Shown here one piece after another: positions 21,475 through 39,336 of a stretch of DNA of 64,000 nucleotides (positions are counted from its first letter, which is position 1; the number at the start of each line of letters is the position of its first letter). This DNA comes from a virus. The notes beneath the pieces are model-generated. The model was not told the DNA's origin. It did not search any database and saw only the letters and a list, made by a program, of their open reading frames with translations. The DNA lies in the IMG/VR virus record IMGVR_UViG_3300021960_000019. One strand, given 5' to 3'. A program made the translations under genes and the position numbers.

Positions 21475-22527
21475 ATGAAAGTCGCTTTGATTACAGACAC
21501 CCACTTTGGTGCTAGGGGTGATAGTATTTTATTTTATGATTATATGATGGAATTTTATAATAATGTATTTTTTCCAGAATTAGAAAAAAGAAATATAGAT
21601 ACAGTCATTCATCTTGGAGATGTTGTTGATAGACGTAAATTTATCAATTTTAATATCTTAACCAGAATGAAAAAAGAGTTTCTTGGAAGATTGCAAGAAA
21701 TGAATATAACTACCCATATGCTGGTAGGAAATCATGATACATATTTTAAAAATACAAATTCAGTCAATGCAATGAAAGAATTGATTGATGCATCACATCC
21801 TAATGCTCCTATCATATATGAAGAAGTAGAAAACATAAAGTTATCAGATGGTACTGATATTCTTATGTTGCCATGGATCAATTCAGAAAACTATAAATCA
21901 TCTCTTTCTGCAATCAAAAAAACTAAGTCTAAAATTTGTTTTGGACATTTAGAACTTGCAGGCTTTGAAATGATGAGGGGTCTTAAATGTGAAGATGGAA
22001 TGGACATGAAACATTTTGAAAAATTTGATTTGACATGCTCTGGTCACTTTCATACAAAATCTAATCAGGGAAACTTACATTATCTTGGTACTGCATATGA
22101 GTTATTTTGGAGTGATTTTAATGACAGAAAAGGATTTCATATTTGGGATACAAAAACCAATGAATTAGAACATATCATCAATCCATATAAAATGTTTAAT
22201 AAAATATGGTATGATGATAATACAAAAGTTACCGAAGATTTTTCGCATTTAAAAGACAAATATGTAAAGATAATAGTTAAAGAAAAAAGTAACGCATTTC
22301 ATTTTGAACAACTTGTAGATCAGATGTATCAAGTTGGAGTCGGAGACCTTGCAATTGTCGAAGATGAGATTGATATTGATTGGGAAGATACTACCGATGA
22401 AGATCATGCAGAAGATACAATCGCTCTTTTGTCAAAATATATTGATAATTATGAATTAGAGGTTGACAAAACTAAATTAAAGGTTATAATGCAAGAACTG
22501 TATTCTGATGCACTGAGGGGAGAATGA
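21475..22527 (+). CDS. gp47: Recombination nuclease gp47 (Mre11/SbcD-like)
   Basis: DTHFG, GDVVD, GNHD and GHFH metallophosphoesterase motifs. Confidence 0.95.
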   Translation: MKVALITDTHFGARGDSILFYDYMMEFYNNVFFPELEKRNIDTVIHLGDVVDRRKFINFNILTRMKKEFLGRLQEMNITTHMLVGNHDTYFKNTNSVNAMKELIDASHPNAPIIYEEVENIKLSDGTDILMLPWINSENYKSSLSAIKKTKSKICFGHLELAGFEMMRGLKCEDGMDMKHFEKFDLTCSGHFHTKSNQGNLHYLGTAYELFWSDFNDRKGFHIWDTKTNELEHIINPYKMFNKIWYDDNTKVTEDFSHLKDKYVKIIVKEKSNAFHFEQLVDQMYQVGVGDLAIVEDEIDIDWEDTTDEDHAEDTIALLSKYIDNYELEVDKTKLKVIMQELYSDALRGE

Positions 22528-22531
22528 TTCG

Positions 22532-23767
22532 TTGATGTATAGTTATGAGTCCTTTATGAAGGACTGTTTTGGTGAATATGATAAACCTACAATAGAACAG
22601 TTTAGAGATGAATCTAGGTTGATATACAATGCTGGAGAAGTTACGTTACGAGATTTTTCTAATAAGTTAGATGATAGTGATTATAGAAAACATTCTTTCG
22701 ATAACTGGTCAGAAATTCTACATCACGCATATATCACAAATTTTGAAAATATGATGAAGAAATGGTTTATTGCACATGCAGAATGTAATAATCCAGATAA
22801 GTTTCTTCGTTTCAATGTCGAGCCATCCAGATATAATATAGAAGATGGATTTATCATAGATGGACGAAAAGAAATCACAAGTGGTAGATTATTAAGAAAT
22901 ATATCATATAAAGGTATATACAAAGAAACAGGAAAAATTAATTCCAATGAAAAGGATACGATGTTAGGTGTCTTTGATAATATTATTAACAATAAATTTA
23001 GTGTGTCTGCTTTACTTACACCGAAAGTCTCTGACTTCCTCTCGTCAGGAAATTATGATAGTCTTTTTGCAATGCTTCGCGGCACCGCTAATCGTGCTTC
23101 TGTTTTTAATCCATACACTTATTCGTGGATATTAAAAAATGTATTTCCAGATGGTAAAAAACTTTTATCTCCAGTGATGAGTTGGTGTACTCCAGTGATT
23201 GGTGTTGCAAATTCTAATTATGATGAATTAGTTGCAATTGATGTAATTCCAGATGTTGTGAATAAGGCTAAAGAACTACACACTTATAGTGAAAATATGA
23301 GAAATACCTTTTTTGGTGATGATTCAAAATCTGGTACTTTCTTTTGTTGTCCATCAGAAAAACTTGATGAGAGGTACAAATTTAGTGAAACATATAAAGA
23401 ATATTTTGATTTGGTGTTTTTTTCGCCCCCATATTATAATTTGGAAGTTTATACTGGAGGAGAACAATCCCACGAATCATGGCAAACCTACGAAGAATGG
23501 TTAGATGGATACTGGCGTCCTACAGTAGAATTATGTCATCGTTGTCTTAAAGATGGTGCGACTTTTAGTTTTGTAATTGTTGAAGATTATTCAGAGTTGA
23601 ATAAAAAACGCATTCCTATTAGTGCTGATATGAAAAGAATTGCATCAGAATATTTTACTTATGATAAACTGATACATATTTCGTGGGGGGGTTTTAGTGC
23701 AGCCAAAAATTCTAATGAAAAAAGAAAAAACTTGTTAGAAAATGTACACATACTAAAAAAGGTATAA
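22532..23767 (+). CDS. Putative amino-DNA methyltransferase with atypical SAM-binding motif
   Basis: DLVFFSPPYYNLEVY catalytic motif; motif I region reads LLSPVMSWC; C-terminal half parallels the 26457 protein. Confidence 0.7.
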   Translation: MMYSYESFMKDCFGEYDKPTIEQFRDESRLIYNAGEVTLRDFSNKLDDSDYRKHSFDNWSEILHHAYITNFENMMKKWFIAHAECNNPDKFLRFNVEPSRYNIEDGFIIDGRKEITSGRLLRNISYKGIYKETGKINSNEKDTMLGVFDNIINNKFSVSALLTPKVSDFLSSGNYDSLFAMLRGTANRASVFNPYTYSWILKNVFPDGKKLLSPVMSWCTPVIGVANSNYDELVAIDVIPDVVNKAKELHTYSENMRNTFFGDDSKSGTFFCCPSEKLDERYKFSETYKEYFDLVFFSPPYYNLEVYTGGEQSHESWQTYEEWLDGYWRPTVELCHRCLKDGATFSFVIVEDYSELNKKRIPISADMKRIASEYFTYDKLIHISWGGFSAAKNSNEKRKNLLENVHILKKV

Positions 23768-23768
23768 T

Positions 23769-25496
23769 ATGATTGAATTTCAAACAATTAGATGGAAGAA
23801 TTTTCTATCTACAGGAAACAACTTTACTTCAGTAGATTTAAATAGATCACCAACTACGTTAATTCTTGGAACGAATGGTGCAGGAAAATCAACTATTCTA
23901 GATGCATTGACATTTGGACTTTTTGGTAGGCCTTTTAGAAAAATTAATAAACCACAATTGGTAAATTCGGTAAATGAAAAAGATTGTTTAATTGAAATAG
24001 AGTTTAAAATTGGTAGTAAGACATATAAAGTAAAACGTGGTATAAAACCCAATGTATTCGAAATTTGGAATACCTACAGTGGAGTTATGATTAATCAGGA
24101 CTCTAAGGCAAAAGATTATCAGAAATATCTAGAAGAAAATATATTAAAATTGAATTATAAATCATTTACTCAAACAGTAATTTTGGGTAGTGCAACATTC
24201 GTGCCGTTTATGCAACTAAGTGCAGCTGACCGTAGAGATATTATTGAAGATTTATTAGATATTAAAATCTTTACGACAATGAATGATATGTTGAAAATAA
24301 AACAGATTGAACTTAAAGATGAACTATTTGAGAATGATAAGAATAGAGAATTAACTGATCAGAAAATAGATATGCAAGAAAGATATATTGAATCTGCTGA
24401 CGCAAATAAACAAAAGGCTGTTCAAGAACATAAGGGAAAAATTGCATTAAAGACTATGGAAATCAATAGTCATATATCTGATGTAGAGGTATTTGGAAAA
24501 CAGGTAGAAGATTTAAATGAAAGTATAAGTGATTTTTCTAAAATTAAAAAGAAACAATCTAAACTGGACAATATTGAAAGTCAGTTAATGTCTAGTTCTA
24601 AAAAACACACTAAAGACATTAAGTGGTTTGAAAGTATAGATTCTTGTCCAACTTGTAAACAGTCTGTCACAGAAAATCATAAAAAGAATATGATTAGTGA
24701 TAAGAAGGAAAAAGTTGGTGAAATTGAAAATGCAATCACTGCACTATCTGCAGAGTTTAAGTCTGTTAATCTCCGCATGAATAAAATTACATCTATACAA
24801 GAAAATATATCTAATATAAATTCACAAATCGCAGAAAAGAATACAGTTGTTAGAATGTTACAAAAACAAGTTTCAGAACTAACAAATGAAATAGGTGTTA
24901 TGGAAAATGACGATTCCGCATCGGTCACTAAGTTGAATAAAGAATTAAAAGACTTAAAGAAAACATTAAGTGAACACAATAAGATTAGAGAAGAACTTTT
25001 AACAAAAAGAGAATATTATACAGTATCTTCTGTTTTGTTAAAAGATACTGGTGTAAAAACATCTATCATCAAGTATTATTTACCAAAGATGAATAAATTG
25101 ATTAATAAATATTTACAAGAGATGGATTTTTATGTCAACTTTACTATGGATGAAAAATTTAGTGAAAACATAAAATCTAGAGGTAGAGAAAACTTTTCTT
25201 ATGCATCATTTTCTGAAGGTGAAAAGATGCGTATTGATCTTGCACTACTCTTTACTTGGAGAGCAATTGCAAAGATGAAAAATAGTGTTAACACTAATTT
25301 ATTAATCCTCGACGAAGTATTTGATAGTAGTTTAGATAATTCTGGTACAGATGAGTTTCTTAAACTATTAAATACATTAGGTGGTAATAATGTTTTTGTT
25401 ATTAGTCATAAAGGCGAAATACTTTATGATAAATTCCGTAGTGTGATTAAGTTTGATAAGGTTAAAAACTTTAGCCAGATTGTTGAGGAAAAATGA
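23769..25496 (+). CDS. gp46: Recombination ATPase gp46 (Rad50/SbcC-like)
   Basis: GTNGAGKST, CPTC hook, FSEGEKMR and LILDEVFD. Confidence 0.96.
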   Translation: MIEFQTIRWKNFLSTGNNFTSVDLNRSPTTLILGTNGAGKSTILDALTFGLFGRPFRKINKPQLVNSVNEKDCLIEIEFKIGSKTYKVKRGIKPNVFEIWNTYSGVMINQDSKAKDYQKYLEENILKLNYKSFTQTVILGSATFVPFMQLSAADRRDIIEDLLDIKIFTTMNDMLKIKQIELKDELFENDKNRELTDQKIDMQERYIESADANKQKAVQEHKGKIALKTMEINSHISDVEVFGKQVEDLNESISDFSKIKKKQSKLDNIESQLMSSSKKHTKDIKWFESIDSCPTCKQSVTENHKKNMISDKKEKVGEIENAITALSAEFKSVNLRMNKITSIQENISNINSQIAEKNTVVRMLQKQVSELTNEIGVMENDDSASVTKLNKELKDLKKTLSEHNKIREELLTKREYYTVSSVLLKDTGVKTSIIKYYLPKMNKLINKYLQEMDFYVNFTMDEKFSENIKSRGRENFSYASFSEGEKMRIDLALLFTWRAIAKMKNSVNTNLLILDEVFDSSLDNSGTDEFLKLLNTLGGNNVFVISHKGEILYDKFRSVIKFDKVKNFSQIVEEK

Positions 25497-26140
25497 ACAG
25501 TTTGATGTGTAAAGACTATAGAGAAGTAATCGAGGATTATTCATATGATTACATTTTTACTAGTCCGCCAGATTTTGAGGAAATTGGGTCTGATCCAGGC
25601 AAGCCCGAAGATTACCAAGATTTCCTTATTGAAGTTTTTTCGAAAGCGACACCGAAAAAAGGATTAATTACTGTTGCATTTACAGACAGAAAATACAAAG
25701 GAACTATTGTACCAAAATCATCCATCTTAAAACATTCTATGATGGCAATTGGATATAAATTGCAAACACATAAAATATGGGTTAAATCAACTAAGGTAGA
25801 TTTGTTTAGATTGACATACGGTAATGTACTTACATTCGGTAAAGGTAAAACAAAACAGAATTTAGAAAAAGAATTTAAACCAGATGTGTGGATGGACGGT
25901 ACAGATAAATATAAGAAATTTGCATATGGAATGCCCGTAAATGTACCCAGAAGATGCATTCTTAATTATACTGCAGAAAATGATGTAGTATATGACCCAT
26001 TTATGGGTAGTGGTACAACTGCTGTTGCAGCACATAGGACAAATAGACAATATATTGGTTCTGAGTTGAGTTCGGAATTTCACCAACTATCAATTGAAAG
26101 AATTAATGAAGAAGGAACAAGAATGGATCAATTTCTATGA
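25493..26140 (+). CDS. N4C/N6A DNA methyltransferase, beta-class motif order
   Basis: FTSPPD near the N-terminus and VYDPFMGSGTT near the C-terminus. Confidence 0.8.
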   Translation: MNSLMCKDYREVIEDYSYDYIFTSPPDFEEIGSDPGKPEDYQDFLIEVFSKATPKKGLITVAFTDRKYKGTIVPKSSILKHSMMAIGYKLQTHKIWVKSTKVDLFRLTYGNVLTFGKGKTKQNLEKEFKPDVWMDGTDKYKKFAYGMPVNVPRRCILNYTAENDVVYDPFMGSGTTAVAAHRTNRQYIGSELSSEFHQLSIERINEEGTRMDQFL

Positions 26141-26460
26141 CTTTAACAGGTGCATCCCAAAACATGCCATTTAATGTAGATATGGCATTGAAAGCTCAAC
26201 AATATGGGCATCCAAACGTTTATCCGAATTCTGAATACATAAAACCACCATTAGAAAAGAAAAAACTGAGAGTGGTTGACCCTGCAACTAGAACTGAAAT
26301 CAGTATTCAGAGATTTAAAGATATGCAAGAAAGAGTCGATGAACTGAGAGAAACATTACAGACTAATAAAAATGGCTTGACATATGATCGGGTTTCTGGT
26401 AATATAGAGGTTAAATCAGAAAAGATAGATCAAGGTCAAGTTGTGGATATTAGTGTATGA
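26137..26460 (+). CDS. Hypothetical protein
   Basis: Start and stop overlap both neighbours (ATGA coupling). Confidence 0.6.
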   Translation: MTLTGASQNMPFNVDMALKAQQYGHPNVYPNSEYIKPPLEKKKLRVVDPATRTEISIQRFKDMQERVDELRETLQTNKNGLTYDRVSGNIEVKSEKIDQGQVVDISV

Positions 26461-27788
26461 ATGAGCAAGAACAAGTATTATATAATTATTTAGAGCAGTG
26501 TAAGAATTCAGATGGATTACCAGTTTTTGACAATCCATTGTTTTCTCATCTTACAGGCGAGTATGGTAGAGAGATGTTTCGTAAAGTACTTGCGGAATAT
26601 ATTACAACCGAAAAACCACCATTTCCGTTTAAAGAATTTAAATATGAAGATATGGTCAAATCTTTTAGAAAACTAAAAAAGACTGATTATTCCGATTATA
26701 TCCAACCACAAGACCAAGTACAAAAAGAAGTCATGGAAAAGTATGATGACTATAAGTATTCGTATGCAGATCATGGTTTGGGTATGGTTGATGTACCATC
26801 TACTTTCAATGAAGTAAGTGATTATTTTCACAATAAAGGACGTATGGCCTGTGGGTCGTATGGGTTTACTTCTCCAGTTGATAGGTGGAACAGTGGAGAC
26901 AACATTTGGGGTGTGCTAGGCCCCATCTGGCGCGGAGTAAACGATAGTTGGGAGTTGACACCCAAACAGTACTTAATGGCATTTAGACTTGGTACATACA
27001 TTGCCACGCAGTTTAAACCCATGGTCGCAAAAGTGTTTTATGAAATGACTTCTGCGAAAAGAGTTCTTGATACATCAATGGGTTGGGGAGATAGACTTGC
27101 TGGTTTCTTTGGGTCTAATGCAACACATTATATTGGATGTGATCCAAATCCAAATACTTTTGCAATCTATAAAATACAGGCAGAAGAATATTCTAAATTG
27201 ATTGGTAATAAGTATACCATCACAGAGAAAGAAGATTATTTTGCATTGTATGGTGATAAAAAATCATGTGTATTTTATCGTAGTGGTGCAGAGAATTTAC
27301 CATGGGATGAAATAACAGATATTGATTGTGCATTTACATCACCACCATATTTTTCTACAGAAAGATATAATGAAGGTGGTGAACATTCCGAAGATCAATC
27401 TTGGTCTAAGTTTAATGAATACAATGCATGGAGAGATGAATTTTACTTACCAGTTTCTACAAATTCATATAATTCATTACGTGAAGGTGGACATATGATG
27501 GTTAATATCATGGATCCGAAAATCAAAGGTAAAAGATATTATTCTGGTGATGAATTGGTCGACGAATTAAAAGATTCGTTTTTAGGACAAATTGGTATGC
27601 GAATCATGCAACGTCCACAGGGTAAAGCTGTCTTTTCTGATGAAAATGGTGACTTTGACAAAGAAAAAATGAATAATTTTATGAATAAACTTTACATGGA
27701 AAATGTGTGGACTTTTCGTAAGGGAAACAATGACTTAGACTTGTTTAGACACAAGAGAGTTGTAAGTTTGGATAGTTTCTTTTCATAA
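26457..27788 (+). CDS. Amino-DNA methyltransferase, alpha-type motif order
   Basis: VLDTSMGWGDRL (motif I), YIGCDPN and FTSPPYFSTERY (motif IV). Confidence 0.85.
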   Translation: MNEQEQVLYNYLEQCKNSDGLPVFDNPLFSHLTGEYGREMFRKVLAEYITTEKPPFPFKEFKYEDMVKSFRKLKKTDYSDYIQPQDQVQKEVMEKYDDYKYSYADHGLGMVDVPSTFNEVSDYFHNKGRMACGSYGFTSPVDRWNSGDNIWGVLGPIWRGVNDSWELTPKQYLMAFRLGTYIATQFKPMVAKVFYEMTSAKRVLDTSMGWGDRLAGFFGSNATHYIGCDPNPNTFAIYKIQAEEYSKLIGNKYTITEKEDYFALYGDKKSCVFYRSGAENLPWDEITDIDCAFTSPPYFSTERYNEGGEHSEDQSWSKFNEYNAWRDEFYLPVSTNSYNSLREGGHMMVNIMDPKIKGKRYYSGDELVDELKDSFLGQIGMRIMQRPQGKAVFSDENGDFDKEKMNNFMNKLYMENVWTFRKGNNDLDLFRHKRVVSLDSFFS

Positions 27789-31337: not shown

Positions 31338-31634
31338 TTGATAGACTACAAATTTAATGAAGATGTGCTGCTGGATGAAATCCGGCAGTATATCGATAAC
31401 ACTTATAAAGGCCACTATTCAAAAACCACTTACCAATCGACCGAAGTTATTATGGGTCGAGGCCATGGTGAGGGTTTTTGTATGGGCAATATTGACAAGT
31501 ATTCTAATCGTTATGGAAAAAAAGGTGATGAAGATGATTGGAGAAAAGACTTGATTAAAATAGTTCACTATGGTATACTAGCACTATACAATCACGATAT
31601 AACTTATGGAGACAATGAAAATGAAAATCAGTGA
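31338..31634 (+). CDS. DUF3310-like protein (T7 gp1.7-related)
   Basis: HY..GFCMGNIDKYSNRYGKKG..DLIKIVHY pattern. Confidence 0.7.
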   Translation: MIDYKFNEDVLLDEIRQYIDNTYKGHYSKTTYQSTEVIMGRGHGEGFCMGNIDKYSNRYGKKGDEDDWRKDLIKIVHYGILALYNHDITYGDNENENQ

Positions 31635-32316
31635 ATCGACCCAACTAGTTTTGCGAAATTTCGCAAACATCAATCAATCGCTTTTGTTAAAGCCAGGAAA
31701 CAGAATTAGTACAATGTCTGTTATGAGAAACATTCTTGCATCGGCAGATGTAGAAGAAACGTTTCCAGTAGAGTTTGGTATTTACGATTTACCTAGATTC
31801 TTGGGTAACTTGTCTATATATCCAGAGTTGGAATTTAATGATAAGTATGTACTTATGTCAAACGGATCAAAAACATATAAATTTATGGCATCAGATCCAT
31901 CTATCATTGTACATCCAACAACAACATTTGCGATGGATGATTCAGAACATAATGCACCAGATGCAAAAGAGGCCCCAGAGTATGATATTGATGTCACTCT
32001 TACTGGACCTGCTTTGTCAACTATTGCAAAAGTTGCGTCAATAAACTCTTTACCAGATTATGCATTGATGACCGAGGATGGTGTAATTAACTTTGTTGCT
32101 CTGGATAAAAAATCTGATACATCTGATCTTGCGAAAGAACCTGTTGGTAAATCTGATGCAGATTTTAAAATGTTTTTCCGCGCTGAAAACTTGAAACTTG
32201 TAGAGGGTGATTACAATGTACGTGTATCACGCCATAAGATTTCTACTTTCCGCCATCAAACAAAGGCCCTGCAATATTGGGTAACTCTTGAACAGGATTC
32301 GGAGTACAATGGGTAA
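31606..32316 (+). CDS. gp45: Sliding clamp gp45 (start may be 31615 or 31621)
   Basis: LRNFANINQSL and FGIYDLPRFL; synteny. Confidence 0.93.
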   Translation: METMKMKISESTQLVLRNFANINQSLLLKPGNRISTMSVMRNILASADVEETFPVEFGIYDLPRFLGNLSIYPELEFNDKYVLMSNGSKTYKFMASDPSIIVHPTTTFAMDDSEHNAPDAKEAPEYDIDVTLTGPALSTIAKVASINSLPDYALMTEDGVINFVALDKKSDTSDLAKEPVGKSDADFKMFFRAENLKLVEGDYNVRVSRHKISTFRHQTKALQYWVTLEQDSEYNG

Positions 32317-33254: not shown

Positions 33255-33257
33255 CAA

Positions 33258-33722
33258 ATGTCAAAAAAACATTTCAAAAAACTTCTTAAAAATGTAGATT
33301 TTTCTGCAAACTATGGCGCAGCCGGAGGGAGAACTTTTACTCTACTGCGCGATGCTGGATACACTGAAAACCAAATTTCTAATAAATTTAATGGTCACGA
33401 TAATAGTATCAGCTGGGAAGATTTGAGAGATATTTTTGAATTTCAAAATAGATTGTGTTATTATCTTTCTTGGAAAATAGATTTAGATGAATTGTATGTA
33501 CCATATTCTCCCTTTGCCCCTTCGGTAGATAGAATTGATAATTCTAAAGGATATGATTTAGATAATATTGTTATATGTACTAGATTTGCAAACTTGGGAA
33601 TGAGTGCATACAACCATCCTAATTTCAGAGAAAGATTGCAGTATGAAATGGATAATAGAGAAAACATATTTGTTGAAAGATACAAAAAGCAACCAAAGTT
33701 TGGATTGGACAATTTTTTATGA
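33258..33722 (+). CDS. HNH/His-Me-finger-like endonuclease
   Basis: PSVDRIDNSKGY..NIVICTRFAN motif; inserted between gp44 and gp62. Confidence 0.65.
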   Translation: MSKKHFKKLLKNVDFSANYGAAGGRTFTLLRDAGYTENQISNKFNGHDNSISWEDLRDIFEFQNRLCYYLSWKIDLDELYVPYSPFAPSVDRIDNSKGYDLDNIVICTRFANLGMSAYNHPNFRERLQYEMDNRENIFVERYKKQPKFGLDNFL

Positions 33723-36798: not shown

Positions 36799-39336
36799 AT
36801 GCGTTTTTATACAAATGTACAATGTGTCGGTAATAAAATATTCCTCAGAGAATACGACAATGGAAAGCGTAGGGAAGTAAAACTAGATTACTCTCCTACT
36901 CTTTTTGTATCTGGTGGTAGTGGTAAATCCAAATATAAAACTTTGCATGGAGAAAGTGTTGAGCCTATTAGACATGGTTCAATACGTGATGCAAGAGAAT
37001 TTATCAAAAAGTATGACGATATAGAAAATATGAAAATCTATGGTCATACACAATTCATCTATCCATTTATTGGTGATGAGTATCCAAGTGAAATTCAGTA
37101 TGATGAATCAAAGATAAACATTTGCAATATCGATATCGAAGTTGAGTGCGAAAATGGTTTTCCAGAACCAACTCTTGCAAACGAAATTGTTAACGCAATC
37201 ACAATGAAAATGAAAGATCAATATATTGTTCTTGGATTGGGTGATTGGGAAAACAAAAGTCCAGAAACACAACATCTTAAAATTAAATACTATAAGTTTA
37301 CTGATGAACTTGCACTCTTGCGTAGTTTTTTGGAAATTTGGACACATGCAAAAATCGATATTGTTACTGGTTGGAATGTGAACCAGTTTGATATGACGTA
37401 TCTTGTCAATCGTATTGGTAAAACTCTTGGTGATGATGAAGTCAAAAGATTGTCCACATGGGGGATTGTCAGGAAAATAGAAAAGAATATTCGTGGTCAG
37501 ATGCAGACACAAGTACAGATCAGTGGATTATCTATTATTGATTATCTTGATTTGTACAAAAAGTTTACATATGTAACTAGAGAAACGTATCGATTAGATC
37601 ATATTGCATATGTCGAGTTGGGTCGGAAAAAACTTGACCACTCTGAATTTGCAAATATGCATTTATTCTATAAACAAGATTATCAAAAGTTTATTGATTA
37701 TAACATTATCGACGTTGAGTTGGTCGATAAACTTGAAGATAAACTTAAACTAATGGAATTACTTATTACCATTGCATATCAGTCTAAAGTAAATTATGAC
37801 GAAGTATTCTCACCTATTAAGGTGTGGGATTCCATTGCATTTCATGAATTGCGTAGAAGTAAAACTGTAATTCCGCCTCGTAATAATAATACTAAATCGG
37901 AAGCTTATGAGGGTGCATATGTAAAAGACCCAACTGTTGGTAAACATGAATGGGTTATGTCATTTGATTTAAACAGTTTGTATCCACACTTAATTATGCA
38001 GTATAATATTTCACCAGAAACATTGTATGACAAAGAAAGAGTCAACACATCTGTTGAGAAACTATTGAATCAAGAAACGGATTTATCTAGTTTGCAGCGC
38101 AGTAATATGACTGTGTGTCCAAGTGGGGTTCTTTTCAATAAAGATAAACGTGGGTTTCTGCCCAAGTTGATGCAAAGTATGTATGATGATCGTACTACAT
38201 ATAAGAAGTTGATGTTAAAGACCAAACAAGATAAGATTGATGGTAAGGGCGACCCTGTTGAATTGGACAAGAAGATTGCTCAGTTAAACAACAAACAAAT
38301 GGCCGCAAAGATTTTGTTAAACTCTGCTTATGGTGCTTTGGGAAATCAGTACTTTAGATACTTTGATATCAGACAGGCAGAATCTATCACTTTGTCTGGA
38401 CAACTTTCAATTCGATGGATCGAAGAGAAAGTAAATATATACATGAATAAAATTTTAAAAAACGATGAGGATAAAAATTATGTCATTGCAAGCGATACGG
38501 ATTCAATTTACGTTGCTCTTGGTGACTTGGTTGACAAGTTTGTTAAAATCAAGGAAGGTGAGTCAAAATCAGAAGAAACACGAAGGAAAGTTGACTTTCT
38601 TGATAAGGTTGCCCAAGAGAAGTTTGAACCATATATCGATAAGTGTTATCAAGATCTTGCTACGTATGTAAATGCATACGACCAGAAGATGCAGATGGCC
38701 AGAGAGGTTATTGCCGATAGTGGTATCTGGACTGCAAAGAAAAGATACATTCTCAATGTTTGGGATAACGAAGGTGTTAGATATAAATCACCAGAACTTA
38801 AAATCATGGGTTTGGAGGCAGTTCGTTCATCAACACCAGAATCTTGTAGAAATATGATTAAGAAATCACTTGAACTTATTCTGCGTAGTAACAACGATAG
38901 TTTGATTGAATTTATTGAACAGTTTAGACAAGATTTCAAAACATATGAAGTTGATGATGTTGCATTTCCTAGAAGTGTAAATGGACTTACTAAATATCAT
39001 GACCCCGTTCTCACATACAAAAAAGGTACACCAATTCATGTAAAGGGTGTATTATTCTACAACCAACTAGTCAAAAAACATAAACTAGAAATGCAGTATC
39101 CGCCTATAAAAGACGGTGAAAAAATTAAGTTTTGTTATCTAAAAGAACCAAACCCATTGCAAAATAATACTATTGCAATTGCGGCCGGTACATTACCCAA
39201 AGAATTTGAGTTGGATAAGTTTCTTGATTATGATACACAATTTGAAAAGGCATATCTCGAACCAATTAAAACTATTGCGGAAACAATTGGTTGGGAAATA
39301 GAAAAGAAAATAACATTAGACAGTTTTTTTAATTAG
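36799..39336 (+). CDS. gp43: Family B DNA polymerase gp43
   Basis: Exonuclease DIEVE, SFDLNSLYP, KILLNSAYGALG and DTDS; C-terminal TLDSFFN clamp peptide. Confidence 0.98.
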   Translation: MRFYTNVQCVGNKIFLREYDNGKRREVKLDYSPTLFVSGGSGKSKYKTLHGESVEPIRHGSIRDAREFIKKYDDIENMKIYGHTQFIYPFIGDEYPSEIQYDESKINICNIDIEVECENGFPEPTLANEIVNAITMKMKDQYIVLGLGDWENKSPETQHLKIKYYKFTDELALLRSFLEIWTHAKIDIVTGWNVNQFDMTYLVNRIGKTLGDDEVKRLSTWGIVRKIEKNIRGQMQTQVQISGLSIIDYLDLYKKFTYVTRETYRLDHIAYVELGRKKLDHSEFANMHLFYKQDYQKFIDYNIIDVELVDKLEDKLKLMELLITIAYQSKVNYDEVFSPIKVWDSIAFHELRRSKTVIPPRNNNTKSEAYEGAYVKDPTVGKHEWVMSFDLNSLYPHLIMQYNISPETLYDKERVNTSVEKLLNQETDLSSLQRSNMTVCPSGVLFNKDKRGFLPKLMQSMYDDRTTYKKLMLKTKQDKIDGKGDPVELDKKIAQLNNKQMAAKILLNSAYGALGNQYFRYFDIRQAESITLSGQLSIRWIEEKVNIYMNKILKNDEDKNYVIASDTDSIYVALGDLVDKFVKIKEGESKSEETRRKVDFLDKVAQEKFEPYIDKCYQDLATYVNAYDQKMQMAREVIADSGIWTAKKRYILNVWDNEGVRYKSPELKIMGLEAVRSSTPESCRNMIKKSLELILRSNNDSLIEFIEQFRQDFKTYEVDDVAFPRSVNGLTKYHDPVLTYKKGTPIHVKGVLFYNQLVKKHKLEMQYPPIKDGEKIKFCYLKEPNPLQNNTIAIAAGTLPKEFELDKFLDYDTQFEKAYLEPIKTIAETIGWEIEKKITLDSFFN

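Follow-up and report, generated by a model that had tools for sequence, protein, structure and literature searches.

In a 64,000-nucleotide stretch of viral DNA (IMG/VR record IMGVR_UViG_3300021960_000019; at its full length, 'the window'), derived from a marine T4-like myovirus, three genes for amino-methyltransferases (MTases), here called M22532, M25493 and M26457, are embedded in the locus of the gp47- and gp46-like recombination genes. We conclude that the three encode independent, selected, predicted orphan DNA MTases and that they do not form an obligate multi-enzyme cassette. The explanation that accounts best for the observations as a whole, to which we give a probability of about 0.55, is that among these three orphan enzymes M26457 docks on the sliding clamp, writes a mark at GCC and is protective.

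The three enzymes are likely to shield freshly replicated phage DNA against restriction by the host. M26457 would hold the gp45 sliding clamp by a C-terminal peptide copied from the polymerase tail and would methylate a cytosine of the 3-bp word GCC; the middle C is the probable base and N4 the probable position. CCNGG, CCGG and GCGC sites would then survive in this phage lineage only where a flanking G or C makes GCC or GGC. M22532, which lacks a clamp tail, presumably recognises its target through its N-terminal domain and probably writes a further motif.

A GCC word at surviving sites

Sites with a 5' G or a 3' C made up 35/35 of the CCNGG, 33/34 of the CCGG and 37/50 of the GCGC sites in the window, where 32% is expected naively (enrichment p 1e-15, 1e-15 and 1e-9, respectively). 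An unbiased scan that paired every short palindrome with each of the four 5' bases (415 tests) put CCNGG and CCWGG preceded by G on top in the window (odds ratio, OR, 6.8–8.1; p ~3e-13), and the same signal led in a set of 29 related contigs after dereplication (p 1e-28 to 1e-31), with G-preceded CCGG near the top. Flanked sites occur at normal density, and it is the unflanked sites that vanish. Control contigs of like G+C content and similar coding density were flanked at 27–35% of sites, which argues against codon usage as the cause.

No restriction was seen on the base 5' of the G (position -2: a 26, t 38, c 53, g 13), and since no further base is required, what the sites have in common is an overlapping GCC/GGC trinucleotide. 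The middle C is the one base of GCC that lies inside all three site types, so that G-mC-C would be the simplest reading. RGCY was rejected as the protective word on account of the unrestricted base 5' of the G, and GpC and GCY were rejected because GCGC would then always be protected and because GCGC followed by T is not enriched. GGCC, in which each strand contains GCC, escapes depletion and stands at 0.94–2.0 of expectation, as against 0.12–1.35 for CCGG, 0–0.85 for CGCG and 0.40–1.02 for GCGC in the same contig classes. CCGG, CGCG and GCGC are strongly depleted in those classes that lack M22532 or a close M25493 homolog.

The original prediction had supposed that the three enzymes might account for footprints at both GCC and CGCG. 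The first of these is real, tracks the locus and fits best with M26457. The second is significant in the window only, where CGCG appears to 'rescue' GCGC (11/13, p 8e-4; weak in relatives). Tolerance of CGCG was seen only in lineages with an M25493 homolog of at least 60% identity, a distribution confounded with lineage and host, and CGCG is a weak candidate for the M25493 target. A link of M25493-like genes to tolerance of GATC or CGCG was rejected, given that contigs with a 42–43% homolog have zero GATC and zero CGCG.

M26457 as the probable writer of the mark

Assignment of the GCC footprint to M26457 is probable. The footprint was present in all tabulated contigs carrying an M26457 homolog of at least 59% identity (pooled CCWGG, 85/86 flanked), as well as in one set of loci with 55–58% M26457 homologs and in dereplicated pools of at least 55%, and it persists in contigs of 44–65 kb that have no M22532. 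In particular, a 66.6-kb contig (G001; L100 + L236–L238) in which the M26457 homolog is the sole amino-MTase found, and which has no M25493-family gene, showed flanks at 23/24 CCNGG, 2/2 CCGG and 9/12 GCGC sites. On balance we favour M26457 as the writer of the mark.

M26457 (26457–27788, plus strand; 443 amino acids, aa) ends in ...VVSLDSFFS, of which the final peptide SLDSFFS (27765–27785, plus strand) matches the C-terminus of the window's own gp43-like DNA polymerase, ...KITLDSFFN (gene at 36799–39333, plus strand; phrog_262 DNA polymerase, 1080 bits; TLDSFFN tail at 39313–39333). In T4, gp43 terminates in EKASLDFLFG, and the gp45-binding motif LDFLF is used by the ligase too (PMC6212786). 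M26457 thus carries, as the T4 gp45 clients do (gp43 C-terminus, ligase loop LDFLF, gp33/gp55), a peptide of the LDFLF type; in M26457 it is acidic-hydrophobic, stands at the extreme C-terminus and is nearly identical to the tail of the phage's own polymerase. The strict tail pattern was found in 90 of 120 close M26457 homologs, and most of the others end in similar peptides (TLEAFL, TLEAFF). We consider it most likely that M26457 docks through this tail on the gp45-like clamp, its presumed partner, encoded at 31606–32316 (plus strand; phrog_223 DNA polymerase processivity factor, E 2.3e-59), and the possession of a polymerase-type tail speaks for replication-fork DNA as what M26457 acts on. 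DNMT1 couples methylation to replication via PCNA; by analogy, the M26457 tail would couple the two likewise. A literature search for a phage MTase acting as a sliding-clamp client turned up no such case.

A second protein of the window, an endonuclease VII/HNH-like protein of 155 aa (33255–33719, plus strand; phrog_3322/phrog_1035), also has a clamp-peptide-like tail (...PKFGLDNFL) and is possibly another gp45 client.

A fuller joint reading, which we hold only tentatively and regard as doubtful in its entirety, would have M26457 ride the replisome on the clamp and stamp N4-methylcytosine (m4C) on every GCC during synthesis, as a phage counterpart of DNMT1–PCNA that blunts CCNGG-, CCGG-, GCGC- and GGCC-type enzymes at once; in the SPPD[F/Y] family to which M25493 belongs, the catalytic loop would have been re-tooled, and its substrate or chemistry changed.

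Several points weigh against a clamp-docked, GCC-writing M26457. Some loci with 55–56% M26457 homologs have no footprint. The contigs with M26457 were retrieved by homology to it, so that the co-occurrence is partly built in, and the related contigs are at most 44% complete. In two contigs whose sequence contains no M26457 (L001 and L002; 17.5 kb), CCNGG sites are flanked in 9/9 cases (7/7 in L002 alone), which means that M26457 lies elsewhere in those genomes or that the mark has a different writer. Where the M26457 homolog is 45–55% identical, the contigs show no CCWGG bias; as CCWGG is not depleted there they are uninformative, and contigs with only M25493-like genes likewise do not deplete CCWGG. 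Furthermore, the target, the base and the chemistry that we ascribe to M26457 are all deduced from sequence, and its clamp binding from a peptide match of 5–7 residues. Finally, for the catalytic domain of M22532 a fold search placed N2-methylguanosine (m2G) tRNA/rRNA MTases (Trm11, TrmN, Trm14) above DNA MTases.

The alternative that M25493, or an MTase outside the sequence seen, writes the GCC mark and that M26457 methylates something else is in our view unlikely, yet it draws on real observations. The footprint of L002 (7/7 CCNGG) accompanies M25493 and M22532 without a syntenic M26457; L002 is, however, just 12 kb long, which makes a missing gene the more likely. M25493-family genes adjoin M26457 in most footprint contigs with long enough flanks, but G001 has no such gene in 66.6 kb and nonetheless shows the footprint (CCNGG 23/24). 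M25493 could have a short target, being a beta-class enzyme so small that a recognition domain would hardly fit, whereas members of its family at 40–46% identity are found in contigs that show the footprint and in contigs that do not.

Family-wide departures from canonical motifs

The motifs originally read in the three amino-MTases around gp47/gp46 agree exactly with the translations. Motifs I and IV are DTSMGWG (27069–27089) and SPPY (27339–27350) in M26457, SPVMSWC (23168–23188, aligned opposite DTSMGWG) and SPPY (23423–23434) in M22532, and DPFMGSGTT (25994–26020, residues 168–176) and SPPDF (25562–25576, residues 24–28) in M25493, all on the plus strand. By regular-expression search of all 135 stop-to-stop frames of at least 80 aa in the window, [DNS]PP[YFWHD] is confined to these three genes, and no PCQ motif of C5-MTases occurs in those frames. 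With the catalytic motif confined to these three open reading frames (ORFs), the cluster is genuine and cannot be put down to short motifs scattered by chance.

M22532 (22532–23767, plus strand; 411 aa; phrog_12517, E 1e-12, and phrog_498 DNA MTase, E 5e-8) had been regarded as an apparent paralog of M26457 (PF01555, 28.1 bits), which is borne out for the catalytic half and not for the remainder. BLASTP gives 26% identity over 161 columns (E 5e-8), and hhalign aligns residues ~176–411 of M22532 with ~170–425 of M26457 (99.8% probability, E 1e-27), that is, the C-terminal ~235 residues only, while the N-terminal ~170 residues do not align. By these alignments the two are distant paralogs in the catalytic half only and their N-terminal domains are unrelated.

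Both belong to virus-only families of putative N4-cytosine MTases (PHROG 12517 / 498), named members of which include Bacillus phage G gp294, a Bacteroides phage DAC16 ORF, the 'N-4 cytosine-specific DNA methylase' of Vibrio phage 2.058.O and genes in giant-virus metagenome-assembled genomes (MAGs); we found no experimentally characterised member. The PHROG matches are annotated 'unknown function' (12517) or 'DNA methyltransferase' (498 / 67), the atlas clusters are 77–100% viral (Uroviricota, Nucleocytoviricota), with automatic names that include 'cytosine-N4-specific', and giant-virus MAG contigs carry members too. Neither M22532 nor M26457 matched NCBIfam, and a sequence search of solved structures with both returned nothing at E <= 1. 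Motif I before motif IV, the signature SPPY[FY]..E.Y....QS(W) and an N-terminal extension are common to these families; the M26457 clade adds the polymerase-type C-terminal tail, and in the M22532 clade motif I has neither the acidic residue nor the glycines. SPPY, which is typical of but not exclusive to N4-cytosine MTases, is invariant or nearly so in both.

One search returned 1766 M26457 homologs and another 3425 representatives at 50% identity. M26457 too has a family-specific N-terminal domain, and its canonical elements are all invariant throughout the family: D..GWGDR in motif I, the D-P of GCDPN in motif II, the E of AE in motif III and SPPY in motif IV, the individual positions being D205, G209, W210, G211, D212, R213, D229, P230, E279 and S295–Y298. 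Rare relatives are fused to other domains: to a pyridoxal phosphate (PLP)-dependent enzyme domain (P0420, with an LPG_synthase_C-like part, and P0380), to a second PF01555 MTase (P0389) or to a LAGLIDADG homing endonuclease (P0440, P0442).

M22532 comprises a family-specific N-terminal domain (~1–175) and a catalytic domain (~176–411), and has 96 homologs. Across 37 diverse homologs its motif I reads (S/T/C)-P-x-x-(S/G)-W-x, in which P214 and W218 are the conserved residues. An acidic residue is present in 0/37, so that the canonical hh(D/E)xGxGxG-like loop is absent, and the close clade of the window's protein lacks both glycines, with Ser where distant members have Gly. In the same 37 homologs P299 and Y301 of motif IV are invariant and S298 and P300 nearly so (context FFSPPY), SPPY[YF] recurs in 90/96 homologs, and Asp237 of motif II and Pro274-Ser275-Glu276 of motif III are invariant or nearly so in a family that has diverged to 23% identity. 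Judging from this conservation, the variant motif I is a stable trait of a large family and not damage.

Could M22532 nevertheless be something other than a DNA MTase, namely an RNA MTase of the m2G or N6-methyladenosine (m6A) type, or an enzyme of weakened catalysis that partners or regulates M26457? We think this quite improbable. The AlphaFold 2 (AF2) model (predicted local distance difference test, pLDDT, 91.5) has the class I MTase fold, and its nearest structures are indeed the (D/N)PPY m2G RNA MTases Trm11, TrmN and Trm14 (Z 16.4); generic class I MTases, however, reach Z 14–15, just 1–2 units below Trm11. The Trm-type matches mostly span residues ~88–411, and in whole-model searches, which provide no evidence of a new fold, the N-terminal ~90 residues had no structural match. 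No THUMP domain matched at E <= 0.1 in Pfam, nor was any other RNA-binding domain detected there. A weakened enzyme would be in keeping with SPVMSWC, devoid of the acidic residue and in the close clade of both glycines, and the clamp-type tail is found in 0/96 M22532-family proteins. Yet SPPY, Asp237 and Glu276 are invariant down to 23% identity, unlike in inert paralogs, and gamma-class DNA MTases such as M.TaqI also have a proline-containing, glycine-poor motif I. Considering that M22532 is found without M26457 (in L001, L002 and many giant-virus contigs), we argue against its being an obligate partner. Although ACGT, GTAC and CCGG are somewhat less depleted where M22532 is present, the samples are tiny and a link of M22532 to any tetramer was dropped; for CCGG it is contradicted by the window itself, where 33/34 sites are flanked.

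M25493 (25493–26140, plus strand; 215 aa) is a beta-class enzyme that matches PF01555 at 88.4 bits (gathering cut-off 26.7) over profile positions 2–220 of 221, with the permuted order in which catalytic motif IV (residue 24) precedes the S-adenosylmethionine (SAM) motif I (168). Its AF2 model (pLDDT 93.4) was matched by Foldseek to 2zie (TTHA0409) and 8s9m (Adineta vaga N4CMT) with a template-modelling (TM) score of 0.79 and E 5e-16, and further to 6pbd (CcrM), M1.HpyAVI, 1boo (M.PvuII) and 1eg2 (M.RsrI). It shares permuted order and fold with such PF01555 enzymes (M.PvuII, M.RsrI, TTHA0409, A. vaga N4CMT, CcrM); it differs from them by SPPD[F/Y] in place of (S/D/N)PP(Y/F/W), by a length that leaves almost no room for a recognition domain and by an N-terminal half too diverged for sequence alignment with any solved enzyme.

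The canonical motif IV, (D/N/S)-P-P-(Y/F/W), is replaced throughout the M25493 family (535 homologs) by one with an invariant Asp in fourth place and an aromatic fifth residue in ~90%. In 25 homologs, down to 40% identity, P25, P26, D27 and E30 do not vary and conservation at S24 and F28 reaches at least 90%, and among the 120 homologs listed the motif is SPPDF in 101, SPPDY in 6 and SPPDL in 3. M25493 is accordingly a variant and not a canonical PF01555 member at motif IV. In two HMMER alignments, short and N-terminal and not significant alone, the Asp is a one-residue insertion and the next Phe stands opposite the canonical Tyr; it looks as if the Asp was inserted ahead of the stacking aromatic. 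We read SPPD[F/Y] as a family-wide re-tooled motif IV, and not as a lesion. A literature search for SPPD, SPPDF and SPPDY yielded nothing relevant and no paper describing a motif IV of this type. The protein ends in RMDQFL (26120–26137, plus strand), a weak resemblance to a clamp peptide; its nearest relatives end in LDGFL or LDEFL, and most of the family has no tail.

Selection, distribution and setting of the locus

The genes run in the order gp47, M22532, gp46, M25493, a 107-aa ORF, M26457, CobT-like and CobS-like, all on the plus strand, and stops and starts of neighbours abut or overlap throughout, from which we infer co-transcription of the three MTases with replication and recombination genes. 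The gp47-like (Mre11/SbcD) recombination nuclease subunit (21475–22527; Pfam Metallophos, E 4.7e-12) stops 4 nucleotides (nt) upstream of M22532, which splits it, as first described and now confirmed by Pfam identities, from the gp46-like (Rad50/SbcC) subunit (23769–25496; AAA_23, SMC_N, AAA_29). The 107-aa ORF (26137–26460) overlaps the stop and start codons of both its neighbours and has no significant Pfam, PHROG or NCBIfam match. The neighbours are thus gp47, gp46, this ORF and CobT/CobS, and as they include no cognate endonuclease gene of the kind that a restriction-modification system has, the three are orphan MTases. DNA matches of the window are best to uncultured marine viruses, Methylophilales phage Melnitz and cyanomyophages, in the gp46 and gp47 regions only, at 66–70% identity.

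Between the window and a 96–97% identical strain (L239), the ratio of non-synonymous to synonymous substitution rates (dN/dS) is 0.063 for M22532, 0.073 for M25493 and 0.029 for M26457, compared with 0.063 for gp47 and 0.080 for gp46. These low values and the motif conservation in all three families (invariant SPPD; invariant SPPY, motif II and motif III in M22532) lead us to reject the idea that the variant motifs mark decaying genes. The 107-aa ORF evolves faster, with a dN/dS of 0.19 and 77% identity in L239, and no copy was found in L082/L161. Identity between L239 and the window is mosaic (M22532 96%, M26457 97% and CobS 98%; gp46 84%, M25493 88% and the 107-aa ORF 77%), which suggests recombination inside the locus.

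M22532 is facultative: it has been inserted between gp47 and gp46 in a subset of lineages, comprising the window, L239, L082/L161, L001, L002 and L240. In many relatives (L083–085, L163–171) gp46 instead follows gp47 after 6–12 nt, and M25493 and M26457 come next; whole contigs of this abutting type, 44–65 kb long, contain exactly two PF01555-type genes and no M22532 homolog. One other subclade reverses the order, with M26457 ahead of the M25493-like gene. L002 has gp47, M22532 (66%), gp46 and M25493 (64%), with unrelated genes at the syntenic M26457 place, and L001 has M22532 and neither M26457 nor M25493 within its sequence. The notion of a cassette of mutually needed enzymes, which was part of the original prediction, does not survive this independent occurrence, with M22532 missing from 44–65 kb contigs and M26457 alone in one of 66.6 kb.

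The same evidence makes it very improbable that the three enzymes cooperate, stepwise or in a complex, to give a base a non-methyl modification or to hypermodify it. Two unusual motif variants and the rare fusions of M26457 relatives to a PLP-dependent enzyme domain (P0420, P0380) might hint at such chemistry, but the genes are gained and lost independently and in varying order, their neighbours (gp46, gp47, CobT, CobS) include no hypermodification genes, and heavy avoidance of GGTACC, GGGAC and GATC would be needless in a globally hypermodified genome. Nor do we see much prospect for codon usage, mutation bias or the context preference of a host enzyme, instead of methylation, as the source of the flank pattern: GATC does show a milder 5' G enrichment (OR 1.6–2.2) uncorrelated with the MTases, but the controls are flanked at 27–35%, the bias is all-or-none (99–100%) at three palindromes that share only the GCC/GGC overlap, and GGCC is spared where other GC-only tetramers are depleted.

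Phage anti-restriction methylation is known as a class; the SPPD[F/Y] motif, the acid-less motif I, the putative clamp-tailed MTase and the GCC word are new. M.NgoMXV has the target GCCHR. Among short-motif m4C MTases, that enzyme and those behind the m4C motifs of marine myoviruses (PMC8919816) are likewise SPPY-type with short GC-rich words; the window's footprint requires only G-C-C and so is neither RGCY nor obviously GCCHR. Single-molecule real-time (SMRT) sequencing of a Pacific seawater community showed myovirus-like MAGs to be rich in MTase genes, with predicted modifications mostly m4C and the short m4C motifs RGCY, CCNGG, CCWGG, GGWCC and GCGC in varying combinations, and almost no viral MTase was matched to its motif (PMC8919816). 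The M22532, M25493 and M26457 families are good candidates for these unmatched writers, and the locus supplies three abundant, uncharacterised MTase families for testing. For the M26457 family, a GCC target and docking via a defined 7-residue tail would be a ready prediction; if true, a phage MTase that is tethered to the clamp and has a 3-bp site would constitute a new anti-restriction tactic and a potentially useful enzyme for dense m4C labelling. Additionally, two 'defining' MTase motifs tolerate conserved alternatives, as the family-wide SPPD[F/Y] loop and a motif I poor in glycine and devoid of its acid indicate, and this matters for motif-based annotation.

The phage combines its predicted methylation with site avoidance. 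Regardless of flank, the window has 0 GGTACC sites against 17 expected, 0 GGGAC against 18, 0 GTGCAC against 7 and 0 CTTAAG against 7, and GAAGAC (5 versus 25), GATC (129 versus 277) and CATG (158 versus 276) are reduced. Surviving GATC sites are enriched for GGATC/GATCC in the window and in group A and group B contigs (OR 1.6–2.2, p down to 6e-17), and this 5' G enrichment did not correlate with whether a contig has a member of any one of the MTase families; 'GATCC' has been listed as a motif without a REBASE match (PMC8919816). In the 66.6 kb of G001, GATC is at 0 against 234 expected, CGCG at 0 against 16 and GGCC at twice expectation.

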